Of a stretch of DNA of 64,000 nucleotides, positions 4,518 to 23,301 are shown one piece after another (position 1 is the first letter of the stretch; each line of letters starts with the position of its first letter). The notes beneath the pieces were generated by a model. The model was not told the origin of the DNA. It did no database searches and worked only from the letters and a program-made list of their open reading frames with translations. Where the stretch lies: IMG/VR virus record IMGVR_UViG_3300033153_012477, positions 55,437 through 119,436 of that record. The stretch is one strand, 5' to 3'. Origin of the DNA: a virus. Lineage: Duplodnaviria > Heunggongvirae > Uroviricota > Caudoviricetes. Position numbers and translations under genes: made by a program.

Positions 4518-5024
4518 TTATATCTCCCACACTACCCAAGTTATTTTTTTATCTATTTTAGAACAAGCTAATTTAATTACTTTTTCTGTAGCATCCCAAG
4601 GTGTAGCAAAATACCCCGAATTAATTTTCGGAGAATAAATAGTAATTTCATCTTCAGAAATTGTATTTAACATATTCTGCAACGCTGTATAGGTTTGCAC
4701 AAGTATTTTCTTTGGAGGATCCTTTAATTTTCCATAGCGTTTGCTTGTTATCAAACAAGCTATCTTATAATCTTTGTGACGCACTATATAACCGTCACCA
4801 CATACATTGCCTTTTTTGATATAAGCTAAGTAAGCATCAGGAAATATCCTCTTGAATAAAATTGCTACCCCAGCACCCCATAGACCTTGTGCGTTACAGG
4901 CATGTAAGTAGATAACATCCTTGTTTAATTCTTTAAACAGGTTTCCTTTTTTATATAGCATTTCCATTTGCCTTATCCTTGTAGATCTGTATACACTATA
5001 CAGACTATAAATTTGATATGTCAA
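4518..5024 (-). CDS. Macro-domain protein (TARG1/OARD1/Poa1p-like ADP-ribose processing); true start probably an internal Met
   Basis: 'HACNAQGLWGAGVAILFKRIFPDAY' resembles the OARD1/TARG1 macrodomain signature (...MGAGIAVLFKKKFG...). The annotated start is only 3 bp from the divergent ORF at 5028, so it is probably over-extended. Confidence 0.4.
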   Translation of the reverse strand: MTYQIYSLYSVYRSTRIRQMEMLYKKGNLFKELNKDVIYLHACNAQGLWGAGVAILFKRIFPDAYLAYIKKGNVCGDGYIVRHKDYKIACLITSKRYGKLKDPPKKILVQTYTALQNMLNTISEDEITIYSPKINSGYFATPWDATEKVIKLACSKIDKKITWVVWEI

Positions 5025-5027
5025 TGA

Positions 5028-5981
5028 GTGATATATAGTGTTAAGGAAAACGCATTGAAAATATTAGTAACAGGCGGAGCTGGTTTTATAGGTTCACATC
5101 TTGTAGATAAACTTTTAGAGAAAGGTCAACAGGTTACGGTTTTAGATACATTTCAAACAGGATCTGAAGACAATCTGATCGCTCATAAAAATTTAAAAAT
5201 AATCAATCAGGATTTAGCATTAATCCCTCTCTCTACTCTAGAAGACATTATTATTGAAAGCGACATAGTCTACCATTTAGCAAGTGTTGTTGGAGTAGCT
5301 TTAGTTGATGAAATTAAAGACGCTGGTATGCACACTAACCTAATAATGGCTACCAAGCTATTTCCTATAATCGAAAAATATCAAAAAAAATTAGTTTTCA
5401 CAAGTACTTCAGAAGTTTATGGGTCTAGAAATTACCCTTGCAACGAGAATCATTATTTAACAGTAGGTCCCCCAACTAAACTCAGATGGAGTTATGCTTG
5501 TGCTAAACTCATGCAAGAGTTCATGATACACTCTTACTCCTTCCCTTTTGTTATAGCTCGACTATTCAACGTGACAGGTCCAAGACAATCCTGGAAATAC
5601 GGAATGGTTCTCCCTAAGTTTATTAGAGCAGTTAAAGCTGGAGAACCCTTAAAGGTTTACGGTAGTGGAGAACAGACTAGATGTTTCTGTCATATTAAAG
5701 ACTGTACTGAAGTTTTATATGAGATGGGGATATATAGAGAGTGTGACGGAGAGATTGTAAATATAGGAACTGCTGAAGAAATAAGTATGAAAAAACTTGC
5801 TGAGAAAGTTATCAGACTTAGCAAGAGTAATAGTGTTATTGATTATGTTCCTTATGAAAAAGAGTTTTCCAAGCAACATGACGACATCTTCCAAAGAGTT
5901 CCTGATGTACATAAGATGAAGCTACTTTTAGGATATGAAACTAAATTATTCTTAGATGATATTATCCAGGACATGTTATGA
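5028..5981 (+). CDS. NAD-dependent sugar-nucleotide epimerase/dehydratase (short-chain dehydrogenase family, UDP-glucose 4-epimerase/UDP-glucuronate decarboxylase-like)
   Basis: Rossmann motif 'KILVTGGAGFIGSHL', catalytic 'YACAK' (YxxxK) and 'STSEVYG'. The likely real start is the TTG at 5061, giving the typical 'M-KILVTGGAG' N-terminus after an AGGAAA ribosome-binding site. Confidence 0.8.
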   Translation: MIYSVKENALKILVTGGAGFIGSHLVDKLLEKGQQVTVLDTFQTGSEDNLIAHKNLKIINQDLALIPLSTLEDIIIESDIVYHLASVVGVALVDEIKDAGMHTNLIMATKLFPIIEKYQKKLVFTSTSEVYGSRNYPCNENHYLTVGPPTKLRWSYACAKLMQEFMIHSYSFPFVIARLFNVTGPRQSWKYGMVLPKFIRAVKAGEPLKVYGSGEQTRCFCHIKDCTEVLYEMGIYRECDGEIVNIGTAEEISMKKLAEKVIRLSKSNSVIDYVPYEKEFSKQHDDIFQRVPDVHKMKLLLGYETKLFLDDIIQDML

Positions 5982-6652
5982 GTAAGACAGCCTTAGTGGT
6001 AGTTGCACACCCTGACGATGAGGTGCTTGGAGTTGGAGGTACTATTCTTAAACTTCAAGAAGAATTTGGTTATGATGTTCTTGTAGAATTTTTAACAACT
6101 ACTAAACCTGATAAAAAGTGGGATCAAGTTGATAGAGCTTCAAAAATTCTTGGCACAATTTGGGATAGACCCAACTTTGAGAGTACGGGAGAAGTGTTTT
6201 ACCCCCTAACTTTAGATTCAGAACCGATCACTAATTTAGTAGATTACATCGAACCTATCATTATGGATGTTAGACCTGATATAGTATTCACACATCACAT
6301 AGGAGATCTCAATCAAGATCATAGAGCTGTATCGGAAGCAGTATTGATAGCTACACGACCTTACCCCGACCAGCCAGTCAAGAAGTTGTACACTTTTGAT
6401 ACACCCAGTTCCACAGAATGGAGCTTTGGAGAGTTTCAGAAATTTGAACCTAATGTGTTTATAGATATAACTGATTACTTTAATATAAAACTGAAAGCTT
6501 TAATGATGTATGAAGAAGAAATAAAAGATCTTAAGTTTCCCCACCCTCGTTCTTTAGAAGCTTTAACAATGAACAGTAAGCTAAAAGGCAGTGTGGTGGG
6601 ATTAGAAAAATCTGAAACTTTTAGGTTGATAAGGTCTATTGATATCTTATAA
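5978..6652 (+). CDS. PIG-L/LmbE-family N-deacetylase
   Basis: N-terminal 'VVAHPDDEVLGVGGTI' is the AHPDDE zinc-binding signature of GlcNAc-PI de-N-acetylase/LmbE-like enzymes. Its start overlaps the stop of the upstream gene. Confidence 0.75.
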   Translation: MSKTALVVVAHPDDEVLGVGGTILKLQEEFGYDVLVEFLTTTKPDKKWDQVDRASKILGTIWDRPNFESTGEVFYPLTLDSEPITNLVDYIEPIIMDVRPDIVFTHHIGDLNQDHRAVSEAVLIATRPYPDQPVKKLYTFDTPSSTEWSFGEFQKFEPNVFIDITDYFNIKLKALMMYEEEIKDLKFPHPRSLEALTMNSKLKGSVVGLEKSETFRLIRSIDIL

Positions 6653-6712
6653 ACTATTAATATAGGTTAAATTAAGACTTATATCAAAAGACTTGAGACA
6701 GGAGAATAGCTG

Positions 6713-7813
6713 ATGCTGATAACAGAATTTGTAATAACCGAATCTTGCAACCTAGCATGCACCTATTGCTACATGGCTAATAAAAGTAAGTTCATGGAGA
6801 AGGCAGAAGTAGATCTGTTTATCGAAAAAGTAGGAAACATATTAAAACTATACAAACAAAAAGAATATCATATCTCATTCTTTGGCGGAGAGCCTTTATT
6901 AAACTGGGACATTATAAAATACGCCACCCCTAAGTTTAACGCCGACCCTAGATGCCATAGCGTTATGATTATATCTAACGGTCTTCTTTTAGATGAAGAA
7001 AAGTTAAGATTTATAAAAGAAAATAATCTAGGTTTCTCACTATCATTTGATGGGCTTTGGCAAAAAGAGAATAGACCACTTGTGTCAGGTAGTTCTAGTT
7101 TTGATGCCTACATTGAAAAGAAACCCCTAATCAAGCAACTGGTGAACTCATCAAAGTGTATGGTATCCCCTCAAAACCTCGATACTCTTGTGGAGAATCA
7201 CATCTTCCTTACTCAAGAATATGGTTTCACTACTCCTGATTTTTCTTTAGTACGAGATGATATTTGGTCAGCAGACGATGTTAAAGTTTTTGAGACCGAA
7301 GTAGTAAAGTTAGCCGACCACTGCATTAAGAGAATTAAAGAGGGACACTTTGAGATCAGCGGTCTTTTTGGATTGTATATCTTAGATATGATCGTTGGGG
7401 ATCAAATTGGTAAAAGAGGTTGGGGATGTTTTGCAGGTAAAAATGGAGTAGGTTATAGCAGTGAGGGAGTTTTTTACCCCTGTGCTAGATTTGCTTCAGG
7501 AGACGAGTATGGTCTTTACGATGCGAAAAAAGAAATATGGTACAAAGGTAATATAGCTTTTATGCTTCACCCTAAGGTAACCAACCCAAAAGAATACCCA
7601 GAGTGTAAGGAATGTGAGTTGTATCAGTACTGTAATGCTGGGTGTACCTATTCAGAAATAAAAAATGGAAACGGCGAGAGAGCAGTACCTATAGATGGTT
7701 TATGTGATGTTCTTAAACTTTGTTATAGAGAATCTACTAGAATGGCAGTAGAGTTAAAAGATGTTCCCGTATTTAAAAATATTATTGAAAATATGTTAAG
7801 AAATTCAGGTTAA
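6713..7813 (+). CDS. Radical SAM enzyme with C-terminal SPASM domain (anaerobic sulfatase-maturase-like)
   Basis: 'ITESCNLACTYCY' (CxxxCxxC), 'FFGGEPLLN' and a C-terminal Cys cluster 'CKECELYQYCNAGC...C' typical of SPASM auxiliary Fe-S domains. AGGAGA ribosome-binding site upstream. Confidence 0.8.
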   Translation: MLITEFVITESCNLACTYCYMANKSKFMEKAEVDLFIEKVGNILKLYKQKEYHISFFGGEPLLNWDIIKYATPKFNADPRCHSVMIISNGLLLDEEKLRFIKENNLGFSLSFDGLWQKENRPLVSGSSSFDAYIEKKPLIKQLVNSSKCMVSPQNLDTLVENHIFLTQEYGFTTPDFSLVRDDIWSADDVKVFETEVVKLADHCIKRIKEGHFEISGLFGLYILDMIVGDQIGKRGWGCFAGKNGVGYSSEGVFYPCARFASGDEYGLYDAKKEIWYKGNIAFMLHPKVTNPKEYPECKECELYQYCNAGCTYSEIKNGNGERAVPIDGLCDVLKLCYRESTRMAVELKDVPVFKNIIENMLRNSG

Positions 7814-7836
7814 TAAACAAAAAAAGGAGATCTCCT

Positions 7837-8370
7837 ATGACTACTGAAGAGTTAAAAGAAGTAAAAGAAACTAGTGAACCTCAAAATACCGAGGAAGTAA
7901 CAACATCGATGGATGAGGCTATGGAAGCTGCAAAAGAAATGCAGGACTTAAGCTCTGTTTGTGATAATAACCAAGGTCCTCAGGAAGATCCAGGAATCGA
8001 GTGTAACATTGACGAAATGAGAAGTGCCTTCTATGGAACATCACTTAACTTATTTCAAGCTGCTAAAAGTTTAAAGCCTTATGATATCTTTTATACAGAT
8101 ACTCTTCTTACTCAGGCTCAGTATTTTTTAAATTTAGCGGACAACTATGACACTCTTTACTCTATGGCTAAGATGAACAGTGAGATGCCTTTAAATAAGC
8201 TTTCTTCTAAAGTTCCTGATGAAGTTGTTAATCAAATCGATGACTATGCAACTGCAATTGAAAACAGAATGGCGACTTTGAAAAGCAAAGCTAATGTTTC
8301 TGATGAAGTTGTTGCCAATGTCGATGATATTGCTAATGCTATTCAAGAAAAATTGAATAAAAAAGCTTAA
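7837..8370 (+). CDS. Hypothetical acidic protein
   Basis: 177 aa, highly acidic, preceded by an AAGGAG ribosome-binding site. It sits between rSAM genes and could be an accessory or scaffold protein. No motif. Confidence 0.5.
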   Translation: MTTEELKEVKETSEPQNTEEVTTSMDEAMEAAKEMQDLSSVCDNNQGPQEDPGIECNIDEMRSAFYGTSLNLFQAAKSLKPYDIFYTDTLLTQAQYFLNLADNYDTLYSMAKMNSEMPLNKLSSKVPDEVVNQIDDYATAIENRMATLKSKANVSDEVVANVDDIANAIQEKLNKKA

Positions 8371-8383
8371 TAAGGAAACTCTT

Positions 8384-9607
8384 ATGGCAGAAGATGATGA
8401 TAAAATCATTACTAAGAAACATCTAAATTCTTTTTTTGATTCTATAGATATTAATTTAAGAGATATAATTAATAATCGAAATAGGGAGCAATCAAAGCAA
8501 GCAGAGATGCGTCCTGGTATCGGAGAGTGTGCTGATGATAACTTTAGTGAGAAGCATTCTTCAGAAGAGTTAAAAGATTCTTTAAATAAAATACTAGAAG
8601 AAAACAAACCTAAAGTTGAAGAACAGGTAAAGAAAAAAGTAGGAGAGCAGTCTCCTAAGTATACCGTGCCTGAATTTAAAGAAGAAACCACACTTAAGGT
8701 GGACGATGGTTGTTTTGACACAACCAAAAGCACCCAAGAGGCTCCTGCCCCTGAAGATGTTAAAGGTCCAAACATAATGTATCTCACAACAGAGTGTAAC
8801 TTAGCTTGTGAGTATTGTTATGAACAAACGGAAAGAGACCAACTGGATACTCAGCGAGTTATGACCAAAAAAGAATTGTCTAGTGCTTTAGAGTTGATCC
8901 ACAATAAGTGGAACAAAAAATCAGAGTGTCCAGAAACTGTAGTTATTTTTGGTGGAGAACCTTTTTTAGTTCCAGAATCTGTGAAATATATTCTAGACAG
9001 AAGTATCGAAATCAATAAAGATGCTTATGCTTTTTGCTTAACCACGAATGGTGTCTGGTTTTTAAAAGAAGAAAATGTTCTGAAGTACAAAGAGTGGACT
9101 AAAGGTAGAACTATCAGCTTAGAAGTAAGTTGGGATGGATCAGGAAACTATCGAAGAGTTTACAAAAACGGCAAGCCTGCAGAACACCACATAAATCAAG
9201 CTCTGGACAATCTAGCCAAGCATGGGATCAACGTAACACTGAGATACACGATACATGCAGGTAACTACGATAAGGTGATACATGATTATATCTATGGTAT
9301 CGAGAGATGGGCAAACATCAAAAAAATACAGAATAGTTATGATTTCACAGGACTTGACGAAGTGGACCCAGATCTAAACTGGGAACAGTTGATTTATGGG
9401 AAACTGAAATATCGAGAATTCTACCGAGCTTTGTGGAATAAGTATGAAAAACCACTCTGTCAGGAAGTTTGTGACTTGTGTGACTACTGTGACCTGACGT
9501 TAAACGCTGTTAACTACTTTGTCCCAGAAGAAGATGTTTTAGTAAAACCATCTAATGATAAAGGACAAGTTCAAAATAAACCCTTTGACCATTGGTTAAA
9601 GAAATAA
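8384..9607 (+). CDS. Radical SAM/SPASM-like enzyme with a roughly 130-aa N-terminal extension
   Basis: 'LTTECNLACEYCYE' (CxxxCxxC), 'FGGEPFL' and a C-terminal Cys cluster 'CQEVCDLCDYCDL'. Confidence 0.75.
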   Translation: MAEDDDKIITKKHLNSFFDSIDINLRDIINNRNREQSKQAEMRPGIGECADDNFSEKHSSEELKDSLNKILEENKPKVEEQVKKKVGEQSPKYTVPEFKEETTLKVDDGCFDTTKSTQEAPAPEDVKGPNIMYLTTECNLACEYCYEQTERDQLDTQRVMTKKELSSALELIHNKWNKKSECPETVVIFGGEPFLVPESVKYILDRSIEINKDAYAFCLTTNGVWFLKEENVLKYKEWTKGRTISLEVSWDGSGNYRRVYKNGKPAEHHINQALDNLAKHGINVTLRYTIHAGNYDKVIHDYIYGIERWANIKKIQNSYDFTGLDEVDPDLNWEQLIYGKLKYREFYRALWNKYEKPLCQEVCDLCDYCDLTLNAVNYFVPEEDVLVKPSNDKGQVQNKPFDHWLKK

Positions 9608-9616
9608 GGAGATAAT

Positions 9617-10762
9617 ATGGGAACGAGTCCAATGAGAAAGGGTAACAACTTTTTCTTTTTTGATATAAACACAACAACTCGATGTAATCTACGCTGTAAG
9701 TATTGCATAGAACCTTTCAAAGAAGATAAAGATCTAGACGATGAGGTAATTAATAAGTTTATTGCCAGAATGGATGAGTTTTTTGCTTCTAACTTAATGA
9801 AAAGCTATGACGGGGTCACTATTGGGTTTTGGGGTGGAGAACCAACAACTAACCCAAAAGCTATGCAAAAAATCATCAGACACTACGAAAATGATGATCA
9901 GATTAGATTTTTAGTCTATTCTAATGGATACAGAATCAATCATATCAGACCTTTTATAGAAGAATACAAGGATACGAAACTACCAAATGGTAGTCCTAAA
10001 ATATATTATCAGATATCCTATGATGGTCGTGCAGCTCATGCTCATAATAGATTATCCTACACTGGTAAAGAAACTGTAGAGGAAGTCAAAGACTCAATTG
10101 CTTGGGCTGTGAGGGAAAATATACCTTTCAGTATTAAATCTACTATAAATAGGGAAACATTTCACCTAATGGATGAGTGCTATGAAGATGTCAAAGAACT
10201 CACAGAAGGTCAAAATGGAACTTATTTTCCAACAATTGATTATCTTACTAATATAAAAGTAACAGATGAAGAGAGAACTCAGCATTACAAGGATATGGAG
10301 AAATCTTTAGTTAATATTGCTGAGAAAGAAATTGACTATTATAGGAAACACAACAGGTTCTTTTTCTCTTGGTTTAATGACAGTAAAGCCCTATGTGCAG
10401 CAGGATCTCATGGATTAGCTATGGATATTGATGGTACGATTTACAAATGCCACGGTGTCTTTTACAGCGATGTCAAAGAAGATAACAGGGTTACCTCTAT
10501 CTATGATGATACCTTCATGGAAGATATAGAGGCTTCTTGTAAAATGCACAAAGAGATTCACCAAATTATACCAGAGGCTTGTAAGAACTGTTACTCCGAG
10601 TTTTGTTTGAAGTGCAATTCAATGTGTTACGATATTAGTGAAAAAGAAACATTTATGGAAAGATGGAATGATTACCCAAATCAACCTGAAATATGCGATC
10701 TGTATCGTCTAGCCACACAAGTAAAGTGGGGCATGCAGAAGGTCTTGGGTTTAAAAAAATAA
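9617..10762 (+). CDS. Radical SAM/SPASM-like enzyme
   Basis: 'TTTRCNLRCKYCIE' (CxxxCxxC), 'WGGEPT' and a C-terminal cluster 'CKNCYSEFCLKCNSMC'. GGAG ribosome-binding site. Confidence 0.75.
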   Translation: MGTSPMRKGNNFFFFDINTTTRCNLRCKYCIEPFKEDKDLDDEVINKFIARMDEFFASNLMKSYDGVTIGFWGGEPTTNPKAMQKIIRHYENDDQIRFLVYSNGYRINHIRPFIEEYKDTKLPNGSPKIYYQISYDGRAAHAHNRLSYTGKETVEEVKDSIAWAVRENIPFSIKSTINRETFHLMDECYEDVKELTEGQNGTYFPTIDYLTNIKVTDEERTQHYKDMEKSLVNIAEKEIDYYRKHNRFFFSWFNDSKALCAAGSHGLAMDIDGTIYKCHGVFYSDVKEDNRVTSIYDDTFMEDIEASCKMHKEIHQIIPEACKNCYSEFCLKCNSMCYDISEKETFMERWNDYPNQPEICDLYRLATQVKWGMQKVLGLKK

Positions 10763-10774
10763 GGAGCGTTAGAA

Positions 10775-11452
10775 ATGGGTAGCTGGACATGTACTTGTAA
10801 TGCACATGATGGTTCAAATTGGGCATGTGCTTGTAACTCTCAGGGAGGATCTAACTGGTGGACTTGTGTAGAAGTCTATGATTCTTTTTATCTACTAAAC
10901 GATGCTTGTCCTGCAAATCAATCATCGTGGACGGACCCTACACTTAGCAACACTATTAAGATCAAAGCTCAACACATTAATGAGCTTAGAACTTCTATAA
11001 ATGGGGAGCAGGGTAGGAGACACACAACACCACATAACTTCGGAACATCTCGTTCCTCTGCGGATAAAGTAACCCGAGTTGATACTCAAACACTCAGAGA
11101 CCAGATTGAAGCACTACACCCTTTCACAGGATCGTGGGTTTATAACTACAACACTATCTCTAAGATAGAAGCAGCTATTCTCACAGAAGTTAGAACTAAT
11201 CTAAATGATTCTGAGAACGACTGTTTATGTAACTGCAATTATTGCACATGCCAATGTAATTATTGTACTTGCAACTGTAACTACTGTACTTGCGATTGTA
11301 ACTACTGCACTTGCGATTGTAACTACTGTACTTGTGATTGTAACTACTGCACATGTAACTGTAATTACTGTACATGTAACTGTAACTACTCATGCACATG
11401 TAACTGTAACTATAGTGATGAAGAGCTGAAGGAAGAAATCTCCTATATGTAA
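10775..11452 (+). CDS. Cys-rich tandem-repeat protein: seven 'CNYCTC[QND]' heptads plus an N-terminal 'GSNW-xCxC-N' triplet; candidate rSAM substrate or metal-binding protein
   Basis: 225-aa ORF directly downstream of three rSAM/SPASM genes with a GGAG ribosome-binding site. Residues 150-213 read CLCN CNYCTCQ CNYCTCN CNYCTCD CNYCTCD CNYCTCD CNYCTCN CNYCTCN CNYSCTCN. The N-terminus is 'WTCTCNAHDGSNWACACNSQGGSNWWTC'. Confidence 0.7.
   Translation: MGSWTCTCNAHDGSNWACACNSQGGSNWWTCVEVYDSFYLLNDACPANQSSWTDPTLSNTIKIKAQHINELRTSINGEQGRRHTTPHNFGTSRSSADKVTRVDTQTLRDQIEALHPFTGSWVYNYNTISKIEAAILTEVRTNLNDSENDCLCNCNYCTCQCNYCTCNCNYCTCDCNYCTCDCNYCTCDCNYCTCNCNYCTCNCNYSCTCNCNYSDEELKEEISYM
11222..11413 (+). repeat. 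Tandem 21-bp coding repeat, about 9 units (TGTAACTACTGTACTTGCGAT-like)
   Basis: Visible in the raw sequence between 11222 and 11413. It encodes the CNYCTCx heptads. The spurious ORFs 11196-11471(-) and 11205-11429(+) are repeat artefacts. Confidence 0.85.
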
Positions 11453-11474
11453 TTTTTTTTAAACGGGACAAGAG

Positions 11475-11750
11475 ATGTTGGGACTAGACTTCGTTAAAAA
11501 ATTAAAACCTGCTATATTTCAGTATAAACCTGAGCACCTTCGTAAGAAGGAACATAAAGTCCACTTTGGTTTTATGGCTCAGGATATAGCTGAACTTCTT
11601 GGCGATGATACCAAATACGCAATTCTTAAAAAAGATGATAAAGACTTCTATATGGTAGATCATGGAGAGTTAATAGCTCCCCTGGTTAAAGCTGTCCAAG
11701 AATTGACAGCTAGAGTAGAAGAATTAGAAAGGACTCTTAAACATGACTGA
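11475..11750 (+). CDS. Stand-alone intramolecular-chaperone (Peptidase_S74 / endosialidase-chaperone-like) domain protein
   Basis: 'KVHFGFMAQDIAELLGDD...DFYMVDHGELIAPLVKAVQELTARVEELERTL' matches the S74 C-terminal tail-fiber chaperone pattern (h.GfiAQEv...vdY..L..lliEAiKeL...ieeLe). Confidence 0.5.
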   Translation: MLGLDFVKKLKPAIFQYKPEHLRKKEHKVHFGFMAQDIAELLGDDTKYAILKKDDKDFYMVDHGELIAPLVKAVQELTARVEELERTLKHD

Positions 11751-12075
11751 GATAAAAGAGAAAGCACTTCAAGAGATGCCTCATAGATTTAATGTTTTAA
11801 ACCTATGCACGGTATACAAATACATGACTATTAAAAATGAGTTGGTCCACAAGGGTTACGCTATAGACACCTCTGAAAGAGAGAATGTATTTATTGAAAT
11901 AATCACTAAAAATGATCCTAGAGAGATAAGTCTTTTAGAGAAGTACTTAGAGATCTATGATCTAGTTCAAGAAAATATGGGACTTGTGAATAGATATGAT
12001 GGTTTTTTTAAAAGCATTAAAGATTCAGACCAAAAAGAAACAGATCTTAACAATTTTCTAGCTGGGTTTAATTAA
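11743..12075 (+). CDS. Hypothetical protein
   Basis: 110-aa ORF in the operon. Its start overlaps the upstream stop. Confidence 0.4.
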   Translation: MTEIKEKALQEMPHRFNVLNLCTVYKYMTIKNELVHKGYAIDTSERENVFIEIITKNDPREISLLEKYLEIYDLVQENMGLVNRYDGFFKSIKDSDQKETDLNNFLAGFN

Positions 12076-12088
12076 GGAGATAAAGAGA

Positions 12089-12655
12089 ATGAAGTATTTA
12101 GGAAAAATTCATGATATAGGAAGTGTTTTGAAATTCACAGAACTTCTCGAAGTCAGTGATGATTTCTTTATTGGAGAGAATAGGTATATACAGGTAGATA
12201 AAGGATCCTATGATAAACTCAAAGAACTTGATCATGATAATGAGCTGTTCTATCCTAAAGAGGAAGAAGGTTTCTCTATGGATAAAGTTATCTATGAAAA
12301 AATGGATCCCCTTTTTTACACCAAGTATAAGATAAAAAACGCAATAGCTAATTCTTTTAAAACAGAGTTTTCTAATTTAGACTTATTTAACTTTTTAAAA
12401 TTTGTTGGGTTATCTTCAGAGCTATCTGACAAAGGGCATTATCTCTACATTGACAATCTTGATGAAAAAATAGAAGAAATTAGTAAGTTAGACAATCAAA
12501 ATCTTCTAGAGAAAGCTCAAGACCTAGCTGAGATCATCAGAATTATAGAACCCAGGATGTCGGGGTTCGACAGTTTAGTGAAACTTAAGAAAGAAATAGA
12601 TAAGTGCTCTACCGAAGATCAGATTAAGGAAGTCATAAATAGTAGGTCTAACTAA
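12089..12655 (+). CDS. Hypothetical protein
   Basis: 188-aa ORF with an AAGGAG ribosome-binding site. Confidence 0.45.
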   Translation: MKYLGKIHDIGSVLKFTELLEVSDDFFIGENRYIQVDKGSYDKLKELDHDNELFYPKEEEGFSMDKVIYEKMDPLFYTKYKIKNAIANSFKTEFSNLDLFNFLKFVGLSSELSDKGHYLYIDNLDEKIEEISKLDNQNLLEKAQDLAEIIRIIEPRMSGFDSLVKLKKEIDKCSTEDQIKEVINSRSN

Positions 12656-13754
12656 AGAAGTAGTCTACTATTTCCAAATCAACATTAAACTCTTCGACGG
12701 TGTCATAGAAGTTCAACACAGTACCTGCTGTTTGCATGTCTAACAAATATTGTTTTTTATCCACAGCTAAATCAAAACCGTCACTGTCCTCCATGAATAA
12801 CCACATTGGGTAAAGAGAATCAGAGAAAGAAGGAGCTGCTGTTAGAGTTTTAGCCGTGTAACAGTCAAAATAAATATCCCATTTCAAAAGATTTAAATTA
12901 AACTCGTCCTTGTGAAAGGACAGCTCGTGGACTTCATTATTAATAGTGTGTTCCCCAAGCACGGGGTCATTTATAAAATCTTGAGCGGATATTACCTCGT
13001 AACCGCTAACAGATATCCCTGAAGAAGAAACTACGCTTGTAGCGAAATCGCTTAAAGAGCAAGAATCCATGGAACCTATATGATGAACCCCAAAGACATC
13101 GCTGAAAAATAAGCTAGGAATATCCTTTGCTATCTTCTCAACCAAAATAGGTCTACCGTAAATATTATTTGGAATGTCTATAGACAGCTTACCTTGAGCA
13201 AATTCTTTTATTTGTTTAGCTAAGTTTAACTCACAATAACAAGAAGTGCTGTCATCATAACTGTACATCCAAGATGTTCTTAGAATCATATAGTTGTTGT
13301 CTTGAGCATAACCACTAGCTATGTATTCCTCTATCTCCTTATGAACCCTACCTTGGGCTGTTATGGGGCTTAGAGAGGTAGAATCTGTGTCAGGAGACAG
13401 TAATGAGGAAGTTGCTTGACCATCAGATACCTGATCTGTTGACATTTGAATAAACTTAGACCCATTCCACAAACCAAAAGTTGCCAAGTTCTTCATTCTG
13501 TCAATGTATTCTGTCTCAGTGAAGATACTTGAGTCGTAATGATTTTCACAGTTTACAACTATAAGCATGGTTTCTGCTAAACTATTAGAATAAAAAAGTA
13601 GCTCATCTAGACTAGAGATATCTAACTCTTCAACAGTTGGAGCATGAACAATGTATCCTTGCGTCTCTAATTCCAACTTAAGGCTTTTACCTAAAGAAGT
13701 ACCAACCCCATTAATGAGTACGTTTGACTGTGATTTATCTAATGAAACTGCCAT
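12648..13754 (-). CDS. Putative RmlD-like (dTDP-4-dehydrorhamnose reductase family) Rossmann protein with large insertions
   Basis: N-terminal 'VLINGVGTSLGKSL' glycine-rich Rossmann motif. 'MILRTSWMY' and 'NIYGRPILVEKIAKDI' resemble the RmlD 'LRTSWVYG' substrate-binding region. Weak. Confidence 0.35.
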   Translation of the reverse strand: MAVSLDKSQSNVLINGVGTSLGKSLKLELETQGYIVHAPTVEELDISSLDELLFYSNSLAETMLIVVNCENHYDSSIFTETEYIDRMKNLATFGLWNGSKFIQMSTDQVSDGQATSSLLSPDTDSTSLSPITAQGRVHKEIEEYIASGYAQDNNYMILRTSWMYSYDDSTSCYCELNLAKQIKEFAQGKLSIDIPNNIYGRPILVEKIAKDIPSLFFSDVFGVHHIGSMDSCSLSDFATSVVSSSGISVSGYEVISAQDFINDPVLGEHTINNEVHELSFHKDEFNLNLLKWDIYFDCYTAKTLTAAPSFSDSLYPMWLFMEDSDGFDLAVDKKQYLLDMQTAGTVLNFYDTVEEFNVDLEIVDYFFS

Positions 13755-13881
13755 AATTAAGTCCTTAAACCCTTGTGATTATAATTCTATTATTATCTAA
13801 AATTAATAAAGTATCGTCTTTAATTAGACTTTCCAAATGACAGAATGTTAATATTTACATAGATAAGGAGTATTATATTGT

Positions 13882-14691
13882 ATGGATGCATTATTATTCT
13901 ATCATTATTCAAGAAAAATTACGGGATCTACGTTCAATGCTTTTGAATACTTCATATCTATCTTTGAACATAACCCCGATTTTAAACTAATCTTTGTTAA
14001 TTCTAATGACATGGAGATTGATTATCTGTGTAATATTTTCGAGAACAGATATAACCTAGAGGATATTGACTACAGAAAGAGCATTGATCATATGGACTTC
14101 TGTAAAATAGTCTACCTCAACCAAGTATTAGATAAAGCACTTCTCTTAGATTACGGTACAGTTTGGAAGTTAAAAAATGTACTGAAGTGCAACCACATTA
14201 TACACATATGTGAAAAAACAGAAGATCCAGAATATAGGTTTGAGGGAAAACTTGCCCCAGTAACTTCTTATGGAGAGATGCCTTTCGCCCACAAAGACAA
14301 AGAATATCGGATGAAGTTAGGGTTCAACAGATTCAAGAAACTGAAAAACGTTAAAAAAGCAGTATATGTGAATTCCCCGTTTAACGGAGATAGATCTTTC
14401 CTGGACACAATTGATCTACCTAAAAATAAGCCCGTTATCTTCAAGTCAGGAAACCATCTTGATAATCTTTTTGAGCAGTTTGACGAGTACATATACTACC
14501 ACGCTAATAAGTGGTTTGACCCCCACCCAAGACTTTTCCTGGAGTGTGCCTTTTACGGTAAGAAGATAACATATTACAACAGACCTAACATAAGAGACGG
14601 TAGCTTTTATCGATATAATGATTTAATGATAAATGGTTTAAAGGACAGAACTCTAGATAAAAATGATGAGATAGTCAGGATATTTATATGA
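13882..14691 (+). CDS. Hypothetical protein; paralog of 14935-15948
   Basis: First gene of a 14.4-kb co-directional operon. It shares the C-terminal '...PRLFLECAFYGKKITYYNRPN' motif with 'LIPECAYYNKKVIYHDIDY' in the next large ORF. Confidence 0.5.
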   Translation: MDALLFYHYSRKITGSTFNAFEYFISIFEHNPDFKLIFVNSNDMEIDYLCNIFENRYNLEDIDYRKSIDHMDFCKIVYLNQVLDKALLLDYGTVWKLKNVLKCNHIIHICEKTEDPEYRFEGKLAPVTSYGEMPFAHKDKEYRMKLGFNRFKKLKNVKKAVYVNSPFNGDRSFLDTIDLPKNKPVIFKSGNHLDNLFEQFDEYIYYHANKWFDPHPRLFLECAFYGKKITYYNRPNIRDGSFYRYNDLMINGLKDRTLDKNDEIVRIFI

Positions 14692-14999
14692 TAAAAATAA
14701 TAACAGACTTGCAAGAGCCTTTTGAAGTTCTTCAAAAATTAAAAGGTTTTAAAAAGGAAGAAATTCACCTCTACCTGCTATACAAGGTAGAGTTAGTTGA
14801 CGACATTATAGATTTCTTTAATAAAGCTATTATTCTGGCGGACAGGTATGACACAACACTTCTTCTCCATGAGGATGACCTTAAAGAAGAAGTGGTTAAG
14901 CAAATATATACTAAATATAAAAATGATTTTTTAATTGAGGAAATCACGGATGGATTTTACAAAAAAATTTCTAAAAGGGAAGGATGTAGTCTTAGCTAA
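14688..14999 (+). CDS. Hypothetical protein
   Basis: 103-aa ORF overlapping its neighbours on both sides. Confidence 0.35.
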   Translation: MIKIITDLQEPFEVLQKLKGFKKEEIHLYLLYKVELVDDIIDFFNKAIILADRYDTTLLLHEDDLKEEVVKQIYTKYKNDFLIEEITDGFYKKISKREGCSLS

Positions 15000-15948
15000 T
15001 GTACTGAGGAGTAGTTCCTGTGGACATCTTTTCGAGTGTATTGAATACTACTATCTTTTCAAAACAGAATATATTGCCATGTTAGGTAGACCTCTTAAAC
15101 CAGCTATCTACTTAGCCTATGATAATTTCACTAAAGAAGATCTAAGAGAGATTGTAGAGAATAAGTATGGTTTCACTCCTGTAGAGGTAGACAATCTTCT
15201 AGAGGATACCCACATCGAGACGATAAATGATTTCATGGGATACAAGATACATGACTTCAGAAACGTCACCACTACTATCTTCGTTGAAGGGTATGATTTA
15301 ATACAGATGAACAGGTTAAACATGTTCACATTGGCGAATCATCTAATTGCGTTGAGGTGTGCTCAAGCAGATGAGGAATATAAAGAAATTGGTTTCACTA
15401 AAACAGATTTTCAAGTGTTTCAAGATTATAGAGTTTATGGAAAGGAGCTACACGAGTATAAGACAAAGAATCACGTTAAAAAAATACTTTTCAATAAGCT
15501 AAAGTTATTTAAATTTCAAGAGCGAAATTCAGCGTTTATGTATCTATCTACCGACTGCCGTGAACTTCCAGAGGACTATGTCCAAAAAACTCTGGAACAA
15601 TACCCCCAGTTCTCTAAAATATATGTTTCCGTTTTAGATAAAGAACCTTTTAAACATTTGGAAACGGATAGGATTAAGTTTCTAACTCCCCCTATTAAAA
15701 ACTTTCACAGTCTCTTCGACACTATGATCTACATGCCTGTTGGAAGAAAGTTTGATTGCTCCTCTAGGTTAATTCCTGAGTGTGCTTACTATAATAAAAA
15801 AGTCATCTACCACGATATTGATTATGTCGATAAAGGTTTAAAGATTAGAAAAGAAGATAGTATTGGGCTATTTAACAATCTTTACTTAGACAGAGAGGAT
15901 GAACTATTTAAAACCGTGGCAAGGAAGGTCATCCGTGCTAAGCAATAA
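14935..15948 (+). CDS. Hypothetical protein; paralog of 13882-14691
   Basis: Shared C-terminal ECA(F/Y)Y-KK-(I/V)-Y motif with the upstream paralog. The start coordinate is uncertain because of the overlap with the 103-aa ORF. Confidence 0.45.
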   Translation: MRKSRMDFTKKFLKGKDVVLANVLRSSSCGHLFECIEYYYLFKTEYIAMLGRPLKPAIYLAYDNFTKEDLREIVENKYGFTPVEVDNLLEDTHIETINDFMGYKIHDFRNVTTTIFVEGYDLIQMNRLNMFTLANHLIALRCAQADEEYKEIGFTKTDFQVFQDYRVYGKELHEYKTKNHVKKILFNKLKLFKFQERNSAFMYLSTDCRELPEDYVQKTLEQYPQFSKIYVSVLDKEPFKHLETDRIKFLTPPIKNFHSLFDTMIYMPVGRKFDCSSRLIPECAYYNKKVIYHDIDYVDKGLKIRKEDSIGLFNNLYLDREDELFKTVARKVIRAKQ

Positions 15949-16975
15949 ACTCTTCAACCATTTAGTAGAAGACTCAAACTTACCTCACACGGTTCGCAGT
16001 CAGTTATTTGTTGGGACATTTTGTAACTACAAGTGTGAGTTCTGCTATTATAAACCACACCTATCAGTTAGAAACGATCCCGAAAAAGTTTACGAACAGA
16101 TGAGATATGTGAAGAAGTGTGGTGTTGTAGATATCGAACTCACTGGAGGAGAGCCTACAATAGACCCCCATTGGTTTGATTATTTGGACTATGGGAAGAA
16201 AACTTTCAGACATCTCAGTCTCATAACAAATGGTCAAATGATGGCTAAGAGAGACTTCATCCAGAAAAGTTATGACCACGGTCTTAGAGAAATTCTTTTC
16301 TCACTACACGGATATGATCAAGAATCTCATGAAAAAATAACAGGAATACCAGGATCATGGGAAAAGATACTAAAGGCAATTGAAAATGCTAAGTATATAG
16401 GTTTTATTGTCAGGATAAACACCACGGTCTGCAGCATTAACTATAAAAATCTTGATAGAATTGCCCTGAAGATAAAGGAAATAAAACCGCTAGGTATGAA
16501 CTTTATCCCACTAAACTACTGGGACGGTGCTGATGCTAGTGGAGTAGATGTACCTTATGAGCTAATGGCTCCTCATATTAAATATGCCATCGATATAGTG
16601 AAAGGTCACGCTAGATATATCAATGTCAGATACATGCCTTATTGTCACATGAGGGGATATGAGGAGTATGTTTGTAACTGGCACCAGCACACTTATGACT
16701 ATTGGGACTGGCACAATTCTTTTAAAAAATTACCCGAACTAGACTATAGAGAAGCCCGCACTTACATAGATGAGGTTAGAGAGTATGTTTACGCTAAGAA
16801 AACAAAATGTCTTGCATGTAAGTATCGAGGAATATGTGACGGAGTTGAGAAGAAACTAATAGAGCACAATGAACTAAAAGAAACAACTGGAGATCTAATA
16901 AAAGATCCTATGCATTTTAGAAAAAATTATTGCACCCTTAATGAATACAACGAGATAATTTATGCCAAAAATTAG
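15899..16975 (+). CDS. Radical SAM enzyme
   Basis: 'FCNYKCEFCYY' (CxxxCxxC), 'LTGGEPT' and additional C-terminal Cys residues (CHMRG..C..., CLACKYRGICDG). Confidence 0.7.
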   Translation: MNYLKPWQGRSSVLSNKLFNHLVEDSNLPHTVRSQLFVGTFCNYKCEFCYYKPHLSVRNDPEKVYEQMRYVKKCGVVDIELTGGEPTIDPHWFDYLDYGKKTFRHLSLITNGQMMAKRDFIQKSYDHGLREILFSLHGYDQESHEKITGIPGSWEKILKAIENAKYIGFIVRINTTVCSINYKNLDRIALKIKEIKPLGMNFIPLNYWDGADASGVDVPYELMAPHIKYAIDIVKGHARYINVRYMPYCHMRGYEEYVCNWHQHTYDYWDWHNSFKKLPELDYREARTYIDEVREYVYAKKTKCLACKYRGICDGVEKKLIEHNELKETTGDLIKDPMHFRKNYCTLNEYNEIIYAKN

Positions 16976-17780
16976 TGTTATTATACCAACACATAATAGA
17001 GAAAAGCTTTGTAAAAGAGCAATAGCAAGTGTATTGGCTCAAACATTTGAAGATTATGAGATCATCGTATCAAATGACTCTGAGTTGGATTATAGTATCG
17101 AAGAGAGTTACATCTTTCAGCATCCAAAAGTATCTTACTATAAGATTCCACCTAAGGGATACGATCACAACTATATGTTCTTAGCGGAAAAATCAACAGG
17201 AGAATATCTTTATTGTCTTGAAGATGACGACTACCTTATTAATAATAATATATTTGAAAAAGGTGTAACTCTAATAAACAAATATGATCAAGTAAATGCG
17301 GTAGTGATGAATAGCTCTCTTGGGTTTAAAGAAGCTGTGTCAGATAAAACTAGCTTTAAAGAGATATATTCCAACGAAGAATTTTTCAAACTATTCCCCG
17401 ATATTTCTGTAGGTTTTCAATTTGGTCAAGTATTAGCAAAAACCAGCATAATAAAACCACTTATTTTAAAAGAAGTTCCTAAAAATTATGGGAGCGTTAA
17501 TACAGATGCTCTTGTTTTTCTACTATTATGTTTAAAAAGAGGTAACATATGCCACATGAATAGCGTGGGTTACATGATCACCGTGAATGGAGATAACCAA
17601 TCTTGGAATAACTATGACAATTGTTTCTTTGGTGGAAGCTCCTACATTCAAGATGTTTGTAAAAAAGCATCCCATTTAAATGTCGATTTAGATCAATGGA
17701 AAGAAAAAATGGAGTATCTCCATATTGAACATATTTTAAAATATTTACCTGAATATTTGAAAGAGGTCGGAAAGTGTTAA
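16962..17780 (+). CDS. Family-2 glycosyltransferase (GT2)
   Basis: 'ISVIIPTHNREKLCKRAIASVLAQTFEDYEIIVSNDSE' is the GT2 N-terminal signature (SVIIPTYN....SVL.QT...E(I/L)IVVDD). Confidence 0.7.
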   Translation: MPKISVIIPTHNREKLCKRAIASVLAQTFEDYEIIVSNDSELDYSIEESYIFQHPKVSYYKIPPKGYDHNYMFLAEKSTGEYLYCLEDDDYLINNNIFEKGVTLINKYDQVNAVVMNSSLGFKEAVSDKTSFKEIYSNEEFFKLFPDISVGFQFGQVLAKTSIIKPLILKEVPKNYGSVNTDALVFLLLCLKRGNICHMNSVGYMITVNGDNQSWNNYDNCFFGGSSYIQDVCKKASHLNVDLDQWKEKMEYLHIEHILKYLPEYLKEVGKC

Positions 17781-18745
17781 ATACTATTAGACAGGGACAC
17801 GACGATAGATTCACAGAAGACTTCACCCGTATCTGTATACACTGGGATCTTCTTCTTATTTGCAACTACAAATGTTCATATTGTTATGCCAGAAACCCAA
17901 ACTTCTATAAGGATGGTTGGTTAAAACTTCCTAGATGGGAACAACAAGAATCAATAATTGAGTCCATAAGTAAATGTTCTCACCCCATGAACATAGGTCT
18001 GCTTGGAGGGGAACCTACCCTTTACCCACACTTTCATAAGCTAGTAGATAAACTACACCGAGAGTGTGGTCACAACAAGAAGCATGATGTTCCCAACTTC
18101 ATATATGTTGTAACTAACGGATCTCAACCTAGAGAGTGGTTTGAAAATCTCAAGAACTATGAAAACATGTCTTACCTATGGTCATTCCACCCCGAATTTG
18201 CAGAAGTAGAACCTTTTATAACTAATATTAAAGTTATGAGAGATAAAGGGTACGGTGCTAAAGTAAACCTTATTCTACACGCTTCTAAGTCACACAGAAA
18301 AAAGTTAGAACAAGCTTATCTCAGATGTAAAGAAGAAGGTTTTAAAGTTCACCCACACTTTCTCTATCAAGAAGATGCTAATAATCTGTGGCGATATAAT
18401 GATGACTTTTGGAAATGGGCTAAAGAGTGGTTTGGAGAAGAACACAGAGACCTTGAATTCCAAGAATATAAAGATGGTGAGGTTGTTAAACATTTATTTA
18501 ATGATTACGAAGTCTACTTTAATAAGATTAATTCTTTTAAAGGTTTTAATTGCATGAATAGTAATTACGAAATAAATGCAAACGGAAGAGTAATTATGTT
18601 CTGCACAGATAAGGTTTCATCTAATCTTAATGAGGATCCAGACTTTTTTGCTAGAGTAGGAATCAACACTATGAAGTGCCCACATAACTTTTGTAATTGT
18701 GATGGATTGCTTAAAATAAAAAAGTATAAGGATGGGTATGCTTAA
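17774..18745 (+). CDS. Radical SAM enzyme
   Basis: 'ICNYKCSYCYA' (CxxxCxxC), 'LLGGEPTL' and a C-terminal 'CPHNFCNCDG'. Confidence 0.7.
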   Translation: MLNTIRQGHDDRFTEDFTRICIHWDLLLICNYKCSYCYARNPNFYKDGWLKLPRWEQQESIIESISKCSHPMNIGLLGGEPTLYPHFHKLVDKLHRECGHNKKHDVPNFIYVVTNGSQPREWFENLKNYENMSYLWSFHPEFAEVEPFITNIKVMRDKGYGAKVNLILHASKSHRKKLEQAYLRCKEEGFKVHPHFLYQEDANNLWRYNDDFWKWAKEWFGEEHRDLEFQEYKDGEVVKHLFNDYEVYFNKINSFKGFNCMNSNYEINANGRVIMFCTDKVSSNLNEDPDFFARVGINTMKCPHNFCNCDGLLKIKKYKDGYA

Positions 18746-18935
18746 AATAACAGAAGAAGAAAAGAAACTTTTTTTTGAAGACATAACTCCTATTCGGAGA
18801 CAGTACAACTTCTTTATTGTAACTAAAGGATTTATTTTTGCTGAAGAATTTAAGAAAACTTATATAAGAGAGTATATCTTAAAAAATAAAGATAGACTAC
18901 TTAACTTGAGAGATAGGATATATGGATCTAAATAA
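18732..18935 (+). CDS. Small hypothetical protein
   Basis: 67-aa ORF bridging two operon genes. May be spurious. Confidence 0.25.
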   Translation: MGMLKITEEEKKLFFEDITPIRRQYNFFIVTKGFIFAEEFKKTYIREYILKNKDRLLNLRDRIYGSK

Positions 18936-19791
18936 GAAAATGCATTGGAATATCGCAGGTGGTTTCGTAAAGAGCGATATCATCCTGGATTATTTCACAA
19001 AAAATAACCTCTTTGATAGGTATGGTCATATTTCCGTTTATGATGGTCTAGAAAACTGTGTCTGGAATGGAGGGAGGCTTCATTCTTTTGTACCCTATAA
19101 AAAAGAAATTAAAGAAAGATACTATGACTTAGGATGGTCAATTAACTTAACTTTCACAAATCCTGTAATTGATTTAAATGATGAAAAAGGAAATTATCTT
19201 CTTGAGGAATTTCACAGAGATGGAAATAATATAATTTTAGTAAATGAAGAATTAAGAAAGTATATCAAAGAAAATTTTCCTAAATATAAACTGATACACT
19301 CAATAACTGCTTGTGGTGAGGTTCAAGGTTACCCCTTACGAGATGAAGATCTTGCTTTCTATAAAGACAAACTCGATAGGTATGATATGATTATCCCCCG
19401 ATGCGATAGCACCTTTGATCCTAGATTAAAGGAGTTGGATATAAGTCGTTTAGAAGTTTTGATAAGCGATACTTGTATTTTAAACTGCCCTTACTTTGGA
19501 GATCATTTTAAAAAAATTGCTAAACACAATGAGACGGGAAAGGATGCCTCGGAAGAACAATGGGAAGGAATCGGAGAGTGTTGGATTCCTAAAGATGAGT
19601 TTGATAAAAAAACAAAATTTGAAAAGAGGATGCTCGGAGATAAATATCCCTTTTATTTAAACTTTAGGCAAATTCAACAACTAGTTAAAGAAGGTTTTAG
19701 TATATTCAAGATGCAAGGAAGAGAAGCATCAGAAGAAGAATTCAGATATGATTTAGACAGATTTATGAAGGACTACAATGAAGAAAGGTAA
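18922..19791 (+). CDS. Hypothetical protein, paralog A of a duplicated family (with 26381-27322)
   Basis: Shares 'VYDG(L/I)..C.W.GGR', 'LTFTNPVIDLNDEKGNYLLEEFHRDGNNIILVNEELRKYIKENFPKYKLIHSITA' with 'IPLTNRNVDIADSLGNETLERFDRKGNRIILCDDNLRKHINKNYPNYETSYSITA'. Each paralog is followed by an rSAM gene. Confidence 0.5.
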   Translation: MDLNKKMHWNIAGGFVKSDIILDYFTKNNLFDRYGHISVYDGLENCVWNGGRLHSFVPYKKEIKERYYDLGWSINLTFTNPVIDLNDEKGNYLLEEFHRDGNNIILVNEELRKYIKENFPKYKLIHSITACGEVQGYPLRDEDLAFYKDKLDRYDMIIPRCDSTFDPRLKELDISRLEVLISDTCILNCPYFGDHFKKIAKHNETGKDASEEQWEGIGECWIPKDEFDKKTKFEKRMLGDKYPFYLNFRQIQQLVKEGFSIFKMQGREASEEEFRYDLDRFMKDYNEER

Positions 19792-21878: not shown

Positions 21879-21880
21879 CT

Positions 21881-22960: not shown

Positions 22961-23301
22961 AATACCCAATAGGTGATTTTTTAGACAGGTTATCAATACT
23001 TAGACTAAAAAAGGAACGATATAAAGTAAACGAACAACAAATATGCTCCTTTGAATTAGAATATCAGAAAGACCACACTAATCTAGAAGATTATTTAATT
23101 AAATTATACAAAATAAATAGCTCTATCTGGGATTTGGAATATGACATACGCATGGGTATAGAAAAAAATCTAGAAGTTATCGGAAGAAGAGCACTTGAGA
23201 TACGGGATCTAAACAACATTAGAGTATCTCTTGTGAATGAAGTTAATAGGGTAACCTGCTCTGGTTATTTAGAGGAAAGAAACTATGATAAGAGTGTATG
23301 A
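22957..23301 (+). CDS. Hypothetical protein
   Basis: 114-aa ORF. Its start overlaps the upstream stop. Confidence 0.4.
   Translation: MKYPIGDFLDRLSILRLKKERYKVNEQQICSFELEYQKDHTNLEDYLIKLYKINSSIWDLEYDIRMGIEKNLEVIGRRALEIRDLNNIRVSLVNEVNRVTCSGYLEERNYDKSV

Follow-up and report, generated by a model that had tools for sequence, protein, structure and literature searches.

A conserved viral cassette pairing three radical-SAM enzymes with a cysteine-heptad protein that ends in a split Peptidase_S74 domain

The radical S-adenosylmethionine (rSAM) enzymes PapB, QhpD, NxxcB and CteB link a cysteine sulfur to Asp, Glu, Asn or Thr at the beta or gamma carbon. To our knowledge, the substrates of known rSAM/SPASM maturases are small peptides and one bacterial enzyme subunit. 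Here we describe a cassette within a 64,000-nucleotide stretch of viral DNA (IMG/VR record IMGVR_UViG_3300033153_012477, positions 55,437 to 119,436; hereafter the window), in which three rSAM genes stand upstream of a gene for a 225-aa protein with a tandem array of cysteine-rich heptads, and in which a Peptidase_S74 domain is divided between this gene and the next. The pairing of rSAM/SPASM maturases with a Cys-repeat target is known; the unusual elements are a putative viral structural substrate, the new heptad and the conserved splitting of a chaperone domain. We consider it moderately likely that the cassette is a conserved module by which phages make a fibre-like virion protein and modify it after translation. 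What is cross-linked is probably a protein of the virus particle, not a small antibiotic peptide. The open reading frames (ORFs) and segments of the cassette are as follows.

5028–5981, plus strand: epimerase (from the ORF list)
5978–6652, plus strand: PIG-L protein (from the ORF list)
6713–7813, plus strand: rSAM1, PF04055 match, CxxxCxxC
7837–8370, plus strand: ORF177, acidic, 177 aa, no family match
8384–9607, plus strand: rSAM2, PF04055 match, CxxxCxxC
9617–10762, plus strand: rSAM3, PF04055 match, CxxxCxxC
10775–11452, plus strand: Cys-repeat protein, 225 aa (Tandem Repeats Finder and codon parsing)
10775–11221, plus strand: N-terminal part of this protein, W-x-C-x-C motifs (aa 1–31) and helical domain
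11222–11413, plus strand: Cys-heptad array (Tandem Repeats Finder and codon parsing)
11414–11452, plus strand: C-terminal tail SDEELKEEISYM and stop codon, N-terminal Peptidase_S74 segment with S214 and K219
11475–11750, plus strand: remainder of the S74 domain, 91 aa, PF13884 match, with C-terminal helix
11743–12075, plus strand: orf110, 110 aa, phrog_25260 match

Coordinates were taken from the ORF list of the window, and the cassette neighbourhood examined spans 5028–12655. Genes from 5028 to 12075 form a tightly spaced run in one direction on the plus strand; a scan of that strand over 5028–12655 found no terminator-like site, which is weak evidence, as the scan was by consensus matching only. 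All ORFs of the original prediction, which had been made from the sequence alone, were recovered at the same positions. It had described three consecutive rSAM genes: there are indeed three distinct ones, but ORF177 separates rSAM1 from rSAM2. Two long ORFs in other frames, 11196–11471 (minus strand) and 11205–11429 (plus strand), are by-products of the 21-bp repeat described below and were rejected as genes.

All three enzymes belong to the radical SAM superfamily (PF04055 scores of 45–51 bits against a cutoff of 29.5), and the cysteines of the CxxxCxxC motif are invariant in the homologue alignment of each. The PapB ranthipeptide maturase is the best NCBIfam family for every one of them, matched by rSAM1 with E = 1.5e-41 (positions 7–319 of 330), by rSAM3 with E = 3.8e-20 (positions 10–322 of 330) and by rSAM2 with E = 1.5e-20 in the core only (positions 7–186). 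Maturases of the nif11-type, SCIFF, CXXX-repeat and QhpD systems, as well as anSME, follow among the further matches. The best PDB match of rSAM1 is CteB (5wgg, E = 2.9e-25), aligned from CteB residue 103 through the SPASM region; since the alignment begins only there, rSAM1 lacks the N-terminal recognition element (RRE) of maturases for peptides made on ribosomes and modified after translation (RiPPs). A profile of the rSAM2 family likewise places CteB first in the PDB (2e-19), followed by the uncharacterised rSAM protein 8vpo, ChlB, anSME and SkfB. On these matches, rSAM1–3 are assigned to the peptide- or protein-maturase type and not to the sugar-modifying type, in agreement with the original prediction.

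The prediction of a triple SPASM cassette was examined by searching the rSAM C-termini with the profile TIGR04085 (cutoff 27 bits), and it stands for one or two of the three enzymes. A full SPASM domain is present in rSAM1 (41.1 bits), whose seven SPASM cysteines are invariant in an alignment of 15 homologues. rSAM3 is borderline at 25.1 bits, with a SPASM-like C-terminal domain of seven cysteines conserved in 19 sequences and a Cx2Cx4Cx2C spacing that varies from the seven-Cys SPASM motif C-x(9-15)-G-x4-C ... C-x2-C-x5-C-x3-C ... C. The C-terminus of rSAM2 does not match the profile; its cysteine cluster has the form Cx3Cx2Cx2C, with C359, C363, C366 and C369 invariant in 18 sequences. In this enzyme the PF04055 domain lies at residues 133–297, behind an N-terminal extension of 130 aa; the 17 homologues set beside it have a far shorter extension or none.

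Profile and structure searches thus lead best to PapB and CteB, the seven-Cys SPASM rSAM enzymes of the freyrasin and thermocellin systems, whose substrates are Cys-rich with fixed spacing from Asp, Asn or Thr, as in the heptads. Unlike these systems, the cassette combines three different enzymes, is phage-encoded and has no RRE; rSAM1–3 score 142.7, 73.7 and 72.4 bits against the PapB-family equivalog NF047865 (cutoff 340), and rSAM1 scores 102.2 bits against the SCIFF maturase TIGR03974 (cutoff 425). The substrate in those systems is a leader–core peptide of ~45 aa (with six Cys in SCIFF), whereas the candidate substrate here, at 225 aa, comprises a folded domain and an S74 module. That an rSAM/SPASM enzyme can cross-link a folded subunit of a protein is known from QhpD, which introduces several Cys-to-Asp/Glu thioethers inside a structural protein subunit and not a secreted peptide (PMC10114670). 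QhpD is among the matches of rSAM1, at 81.9 bits against a cutoff of 453; however, QhpC is non-repetitive, one enzyme acts instead of three, and there is no viral or fibre context. The CXXX-repeat and Cys-every-fifth (CefA/CefB) systems resemble the cassette in combining an rSAM/SPASM maturase with a short Cys tandem-repeat target, and their maturases are also matched (97.5 bits against 350 and 58.1 against 600). Unlike the window repeat, with its period of seven residues and three Cys, these systems are bacterial and have no S74 domain, and the window target belongs to none of the NCBIfam target families.

The candidate substrate contains a 21-bp tandem repeat at 11255–11390 (6.5 copies, 87% matches), and codon parsing resolves seven exact 7-residue units C[NQD]CNYCT at 11228–11374. 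In order, the array at 11222–11413 consists of CL, the seven exact units, an 8-residue CNCNYSCT and a terminal CNCNY ending at 11413, and 27 of its 64 residues are Cys. The seven heptads predicted from the DNA repeat are therefore present, accompanied by two variant units. Pairwise comparison of the exact units gives 64 synonymous and 15 non-synonymous codon differences, all 15 of the latter at position 2, which argues that the repeat is kept by selection on the protein and not by recent DNA duplication alone; the heptad peptide sequence is under purifying selection. Over 793 heptads from the family the consensus is C (100%), N/D (92%), C (100%), N (92%), an aromatic position 5 (Tyr 89%, Phe 7%, His 2%), C (100%) and T (86%). 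The array matches phrog_26958, which has no assigned function, with E = 3.8e-30. It matches no Pfam or NCBIfam family, those of rSAM-target peptides included.

The N-terminus reads GSWTCTCN / GSNWACACN / GSNWWTC, so that two of three predicted GSNW-x-C-x-C-N mini-repeats are full and the third is partial. It is followed by a helical domain with the conserved motif WTDP...IKAxHINELRxAI..E..RR, whose helix leads straight into the repeats; in an alignment of 25 members (A2) E78 and R82 are invariant and N144 nearly so. An AlphaFold 2 monomer model has a mean predicted local distance difference test (pLDDT) score of 58.9 and is confident only in the central helical part, with helices at 65–81, 101–114 and 133–148 (pLDDT 80–89). 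Foldseek comparison of this model with PDB and BFVD returned nothing at E ≤ 0.001. A tblastn search of phages with the repeat protein gave no match, its repeats being probably hidden by the low-complexity filter, and the exact protein sequence has no record in the contig index. Many relatives (such as P0018, P0027, P0049, P0056, L004, L006 and L043) begin with MAC or MGC followed by repeated C-x-x-H motifs (e.g., MACTGHTGGTEVHTCTCHGHTGG...), as opposed to W-x-C-x-C in the window protein; these motifs may offer the enzymes a further target with Cys, or else form a metal site.

We propose that the three rSAM enzymes act on the Cys repeats, most probably forming thioethers from the Cys sulfur to side-chain carbons of Asn/Asp, perhaps Thr. 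One enzyme family might serve each conserved Cys position, and the resulting bridges would not be reducible. Such a thioether ladder is the most economical hypothesis, given that conserved Cys and enzyme families both number three and that Asn/Asp acceptors are conserved as well. Alternatively, the enzymes may modify the heptads by another chemistry, such as sactionine C-alpha thioethers, formylglycine, C–C or C–O bonds via Tyr, epimerisation or methylation. The full-length alignments of rSAM3 and rSAM1 to anSME (E = 1.5e-15 and 7.8e-17), the cyclophane-forming YhhB, AmcB, FxsB and GrrM among the NCBIfam matches, and the aromatic residue conserved at position 5 would fit this alternative, and no score reaches a curated cutoff that would fix the reaction type. 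Nevertheless, the top-ranked families and structures of all three enzymes are Cys-thioether formers, and in the substrate it is the three Cys that are invariant. We therefore hold a different chemistry on the same repeats to be rather unlikely.

Directly behind the array lies the split domain. The 91-aa ORF matches PF13884 at 30.9 bits (cutoff 22) over profile positions 16–53 only, as well as the C-termini of PHROG tail-fibre and tail-spike families. The Cys-repeat ORF supplies the missing positions 1–15 in its last 12 codons; when its tail is joined to the 91-aa sequence, the match grows to positions 1–53 and 40.9 bits. The Cys-repeat ORF ends in ...CNCNYSDEELKEEISYM before its stop codon, and the SD-x-x-L-K-x-x-I within this ending is the start of the S74 domain, including the predicted catalytic positions S214 and K219 in SDEELK, a Ser/Lys dyad five residues apart; SD-x-[RE]-L-K is conserved among relatives. 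The stand-alone S74-like chaperone ORF of the original prediction is thus a genuine Peptidase_S74 match, but only half of a domain. The junction at 11447–11477 reads ATG TAA TTTTTTTT AAACGGGACAAGAG ATG, with a T8 run between stop and restart, and the stop codon and 22 nt part two ORFs in different frames, which places the two halves on separate polypeptides. A phmmer search of PDB with the rejoined sequence returned only the tail fibre 8jov, at E = 0.41.

This division recurs throughout the family. Among 170 non-identical members, 73 end in SDxxLKxxIxY[MFIL] followed by a stop, and 20 have a complete fused domain, continuous in, e.g., P0057, P0100 and L055 (10074–10907). A stand-alone S74 remainder of roughly 90 aa lies downstream of 16 of the 22 split-form heptad ORFs whose contigs continue for 400 nt or more behind them. 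The gaps among loci range from a 1-nt overlap to 27 nt, in relative frames 0, +1 and +2. A sequencing error or pseudogene between 11452 and 11475 was ruled out by the same split in 73 relatives, and a programmed frameshift or ribosomal bypass at ATG-TAA-T8...ATG by the varying gaps and frames and by the own starts of the downstream ORFs. Two loci (L055, 9501–11824; L057, 10696–13526) contain tandem arrays of three or four heptad paralogues, mostly ending in the split S74 segment, with one fully fused paralogue in L055 and a single S74-remainder gene at the end of each array; this arrangement suggests that one chaperone is shared in trans by the paralogues.

S74 domains, also termed intramolecular chaperone auto-processing (ICA) domains, trimerise, template an upstream triple beta-helix and cleave themselves off via the Ser–Lys dyad (PMC8326128). 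In endosialidase K1F, T5 pb1 (the L-shaped tail fibre) and GA-1 gp12, as in the window protein, the PF13884 domain with its Ser-x4-Lys follows directly after a repetitive stalk, and the fused heptad relatives have the canonical one-chain arrangement. Unlike in these fibres, the domain of the window protein is split after about 12 residues, and the stalk is a Cys heptad and not a known triple beta-helix sequence. The 225-aa protein would accordingly comprise an N-terminal helical part, a stalk of nine C-x-C-N-Y-(x)-C-T units and the first S74 segment with the Ser/Lys dyad, while the gene that follows would supply the remainder as a separate 91-aa protein. Acting like its counterparts in endosialidase, T5 pb1 and GA-1 gp12, the S74 module may trimerise the chains and template folding of the repeats; since S74 domains trimerise and template upstream stalks, the array is a candidate stalk of a trimeric fibre. 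With the domain split, any chaperone action would be intermolecular, and a cut at the conserved Ser would free only the 12-residue tail SDEELKEEISYM.

The association of rSAM genes with the repeat gene, proposed from the window, was followed in other viral genomes by a neighbourhood survey. A scan of IMG/VR with the repeat protein yielded 29 viral loci, whose ORFs were compared by BLAST; in 21 of them two or all three of the rSAM families are present on the same strand within the fetched flanks, and several others are truncated where the contig ends. Scanning in the opposite direction, with an alignment of the rSAM1 family, gave 57 loci, or 35 clusters at 90% identity (a scan of viral contigs with the single rSAM1 sequence gave no match). 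In 31 of the 35 clusters a same-strand heptad ORF lies within 4.1 kb; two are truncated and two have none. Three gene orders occur (r1-small-r2-r3-Cys; r3-r1-small-r2-Cys(n); Cys-r3-r1-...-r2), and adjacency is kept across them at 35–50% protein identity. The three rSAM families and the heptad gene are a conserved viral module, and the proposed association is conserved well beyond this genome. The epimerase and PIG-L genes, which the original prediction included in the operon, do lie upstream on the same strand, but they were rejected as module members, as their homologues stand beside the cassette in few loci only.

The slot just upstream of rSAM2, occupied by ORF177 in the window, holds a 70–160 aa ORF in every related locus examined. 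These small proteins form two weakly related groups, and the profile of one of them retrieved ORF177 at E = 0.002, a marginal value in a small database. Neither ORF177 nor the small inter-rSAM ORFs match a Pfam or NCBIfam family, and ORF177 also has no PHROG match. In one locus (L003, 1947–3694) the usual small protein between rSAM1 and rSAM2 is replaced by an ORF that resembles acyl carrier protein (motif DSMGYLELALMIEEKL), together with two other ORFs. An orf110-like gene, about 200 aa elsewhere, usually stands directly downstream of the heptad or S74 genes; orf110, its longer homologues and the N-termini of long-form heptad proteins have no Pfam or NCBIfam family.

A protein search retrieved 579 relatives at E ≤ 1e-5, none of them named, with PF13884 as the only precomputed Pfam domain. 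A DNA pattern of two heptads was scanned against 185,579 bacterial and archaeal species, one genome each, and hit five loci: three phage-like contigs of metagenome-assembled genomes, one of which repeats the cassette, and two CRISPR spacers of Campylobacter concisus. A wide occurrence of the motif in bacteria is thereby ruled out. The spacers of heptad-repeat DNA lie at ~2384–2421 of CP147775.1 (L032) and ~7083–7127 of NZ_PPBR01000103.1 (L034); a C. concisus spacer translates to CDCNYCTCDCNYCT, and the repeat of the arrays is GTTTCAATCCCCTAGATCGGGGAAATTTGTATCAGAT. These spacer sequences suggest that the two C. concisus hosts have met phages with the heptad gene. Of 50,697 phage records, those with rSAM1-type genes and those with heptad genes are one and the same set of 11 Campylobacter Firehammervirus phages (e.g., CP220, CPT_0180), which are the only cultured carriers; being one lineage, they are weak evidence of co-occurrence. 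Megablast of window positions 5000–12100 and 31000–55000 against INPHARED phages gave no match.

Both halves of the pairing had been noticed in these phages without being connected: in 2010 Timms et al. reported 11–12 rSAM genes and, inside CPT_0180, an intragenic repeat of 21 bp (PMC2853527), and a description from 2025 still merely lists the rSAM genes of Campylobacter group II phages (PMC12398825). We found no description of the link in the literature on rSAM/SPASM enzymes in phages, tail fibres, Firehammervirus or the motif. The original claim that such a system had not been described in a phage holds for the link itself, but the genes were already present in CP220-type genomes sequenced in 2010, where the rSAM genes and the repeat were remarked upon (PMC2853527). 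The Campylobacter proteins CPT_0180 (CP220 gp140), CP21_105 and IBB_35 gene 3-9 share the C[DN]CNYCT 21-bp repeat and the PHROG of the window protein, and the Firehammervirus genomes contain rSAM1- and rSAM3-type genes. Unlike the window protein, they are of a long form (534 aa) that differs in its N- and C-terminal regions and lacks the S74 motif. Their rSAM genes lie scattered, and their annotation is either hypothetical or, wrongly, N-acetylneuraminate lyase. The latter applies to CP21_105 (HE815464.1) and the homologue in phage WX1 (OP654737.1), both labelled "putative N-acetylneuraminate pyruvate lyase", for which no domain support was found here. The homologue IBB_35 gene 3-9 (60.3 kDa, "no homologs") is on a published virion mass-spectrometry list. 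With repeats that abut an S74 domain and a homologue in virions, the option of an enzymatically cross-linked virion fibre, one of those raised originally, fits best.

Several observations speak against a cross-linked fibre protein. The virion evidence is a single mass-spectrometry entry with 2.6% coverage, for the 534-aa long-form homologue without S74 domain. All three enzymes lie far under the curated cutoffs of every named maturase family, so that the chemistry of those families is not transferable to them; they have no RRE, and the C-terminus of rSAM2 lacks a SPASM match. On the substrate side, position 7 changes from Thr to Pro in some lineages (Pro in 8% of the 793 heptads), the monomer model gives no confident fold for the repeats (pLDDT 41–52), and three split-form loci have no S74-remainder gene nearby. 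Furthermore, Campylobacter phages keep the rSAM and heptad genes dispersed and not adjacent, and five rSAM genes besides those of the cassette, as well as many sugar genes, occur in the window, so that a lineage-wide abundance of rSAM genes could inflate the apparent co-occurrence.

The Cys repeats could also form an unmodified metal-binding, Fe–S-binding or disulfide-bonded stalk, comparable to the HxH iron sites of T4 gp37, metallothionein or an Fe–S carrier, while the rSAM enzymes act on other targets such as sugars or nucleotides. In metal sites CxC is a typical spacing, the island in the window contains eight rSAM genes and many sugar-nucleotide genes, and in Campylobacter phages the rSAM and heptad genes are apart. 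However, the same three rSAM families adjoin the heptad gene through three gene orders and in distant lineages, sugar genes are not conserved neighbours, and the enzymes resemble peptide maturases and not sugar-modifying rSAMs. Classical metallothioneins are Cys-rich proteins without aromatic residues, unlike the heptads with their conserved Tyr in each unit, and no metallothionein family of Pfam or NCBIfam was matched. As metal binding would leave the conserved enzyme linkage unexplained, we regard an unmodified stalk as distinctly unlikely. The RiPP-like natural-product reading of the original prediction, in which the protein would be a multi-core precursor whose modified heptads are released as small bioactive peptides against the host or competitors, can draw on rSAM/SPASM enzymes beside a Cys-rich repetitive ORF (a classic signature) and on tandem "precursor" paralogues at some loci, but is very improbable, as the maturases lack an RRE, the ORF list and the Pfam and PHROG comparisons over 5028–12655 show no protease or transporter domain and the cassette no exporter or immunity gene, the repeats are contiguous without spacers or cleavage motifs and match no rSAM-target peptide family, and the 225-aa protein, far from a short leader–core precursor, has a conserved, confidently folded helical domain, an S74 fibre-trimerisation domain and one virion-associated homologue.

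Returning to the modified fibre protein, we tentatively envisage a protein architecture not seen before: a trimeric phage fibre stalk that would be stapled by up to ~27 thioethers per chain, with one rSAM enzyme for each Cys position, as a non-reducible substitute for disulfides in the reducing cytoplasm, and with the S74 domain split so that one copy acting in trans could fold several paralogues. This full picture is possible, though we would not call it probable.

The cassette forms one end of a ~23-kb island, which extends beyond it over window positions 12648–28319. Many viral loci have a homologue of the rSAM gene at 15899 located 2–4 kb downstream of their cassette. Other features of the island and of the remaining window are listed below.

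12648–13754, minus strand: RmlD-like gene
15899–16975: rSAM gene, MoaA/viperin-like
16962–17780: family 2 glycosyltransferase (GT2)
17774–18745: rSAM gene
19778–21094: rSAM gene with DUF512
21075–21878 and 25551–26399: split transketolase
21881–22960: rSAM gene
23285–24379: DegT aminotransferase
24372–25127: NodZ-like gene
27315–28319: rSAM gene
1–1062: endolysin-like ORF
45217–47520, minus strand: 767-aa ATPase/Lon-like protein (phrog_15585, 830 bits)
50428–51282: clamp-loader-like gene
52537–54504: Dda/exonuclease V-like helicase
58049–59212 and 59904–60758: NAD salvage, NAMPT-like protein and NAD synthetase

The Lon-like protein is ~40% identical to the products of "lon" genes of Acinetobacter phages and to an unannotated Moraxella phage homologue; tblastn with it hit Lon-like genes of unrelated phages only. 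The NAD-salvage, clamp-loader, helicase and endolysin-like genes are in keeping with a phage genome of large size; no virion hallmark gene lies in the window.

The motif C-[ND]-C-N-Y-C-T is a new repeat, defining a family of several hundred unnamed members, and the conserved two-gene split of an "intramolecular" chaperone is a natural experiment on S74 action in trans. A densely thioether-stapled, genetically encoded rod would be of interest to protein engineers. For the Campylobacter group II phages, whose abundance of rSAM genes has been puzzling since 2010 (PMC2853527), a candidate substrate can now be named, and as CP220-type phages are culturable, the hypothesis is directly testable. A viral module aimed at a fibre protein would extend rSAM/SPASM chemistry to virion structure. 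If true, this would be the first radical-SAM maturation of the "RiPP type" on a protein of the virus particle, and part of the rSAM abundance of CP220-type phages would be explained.

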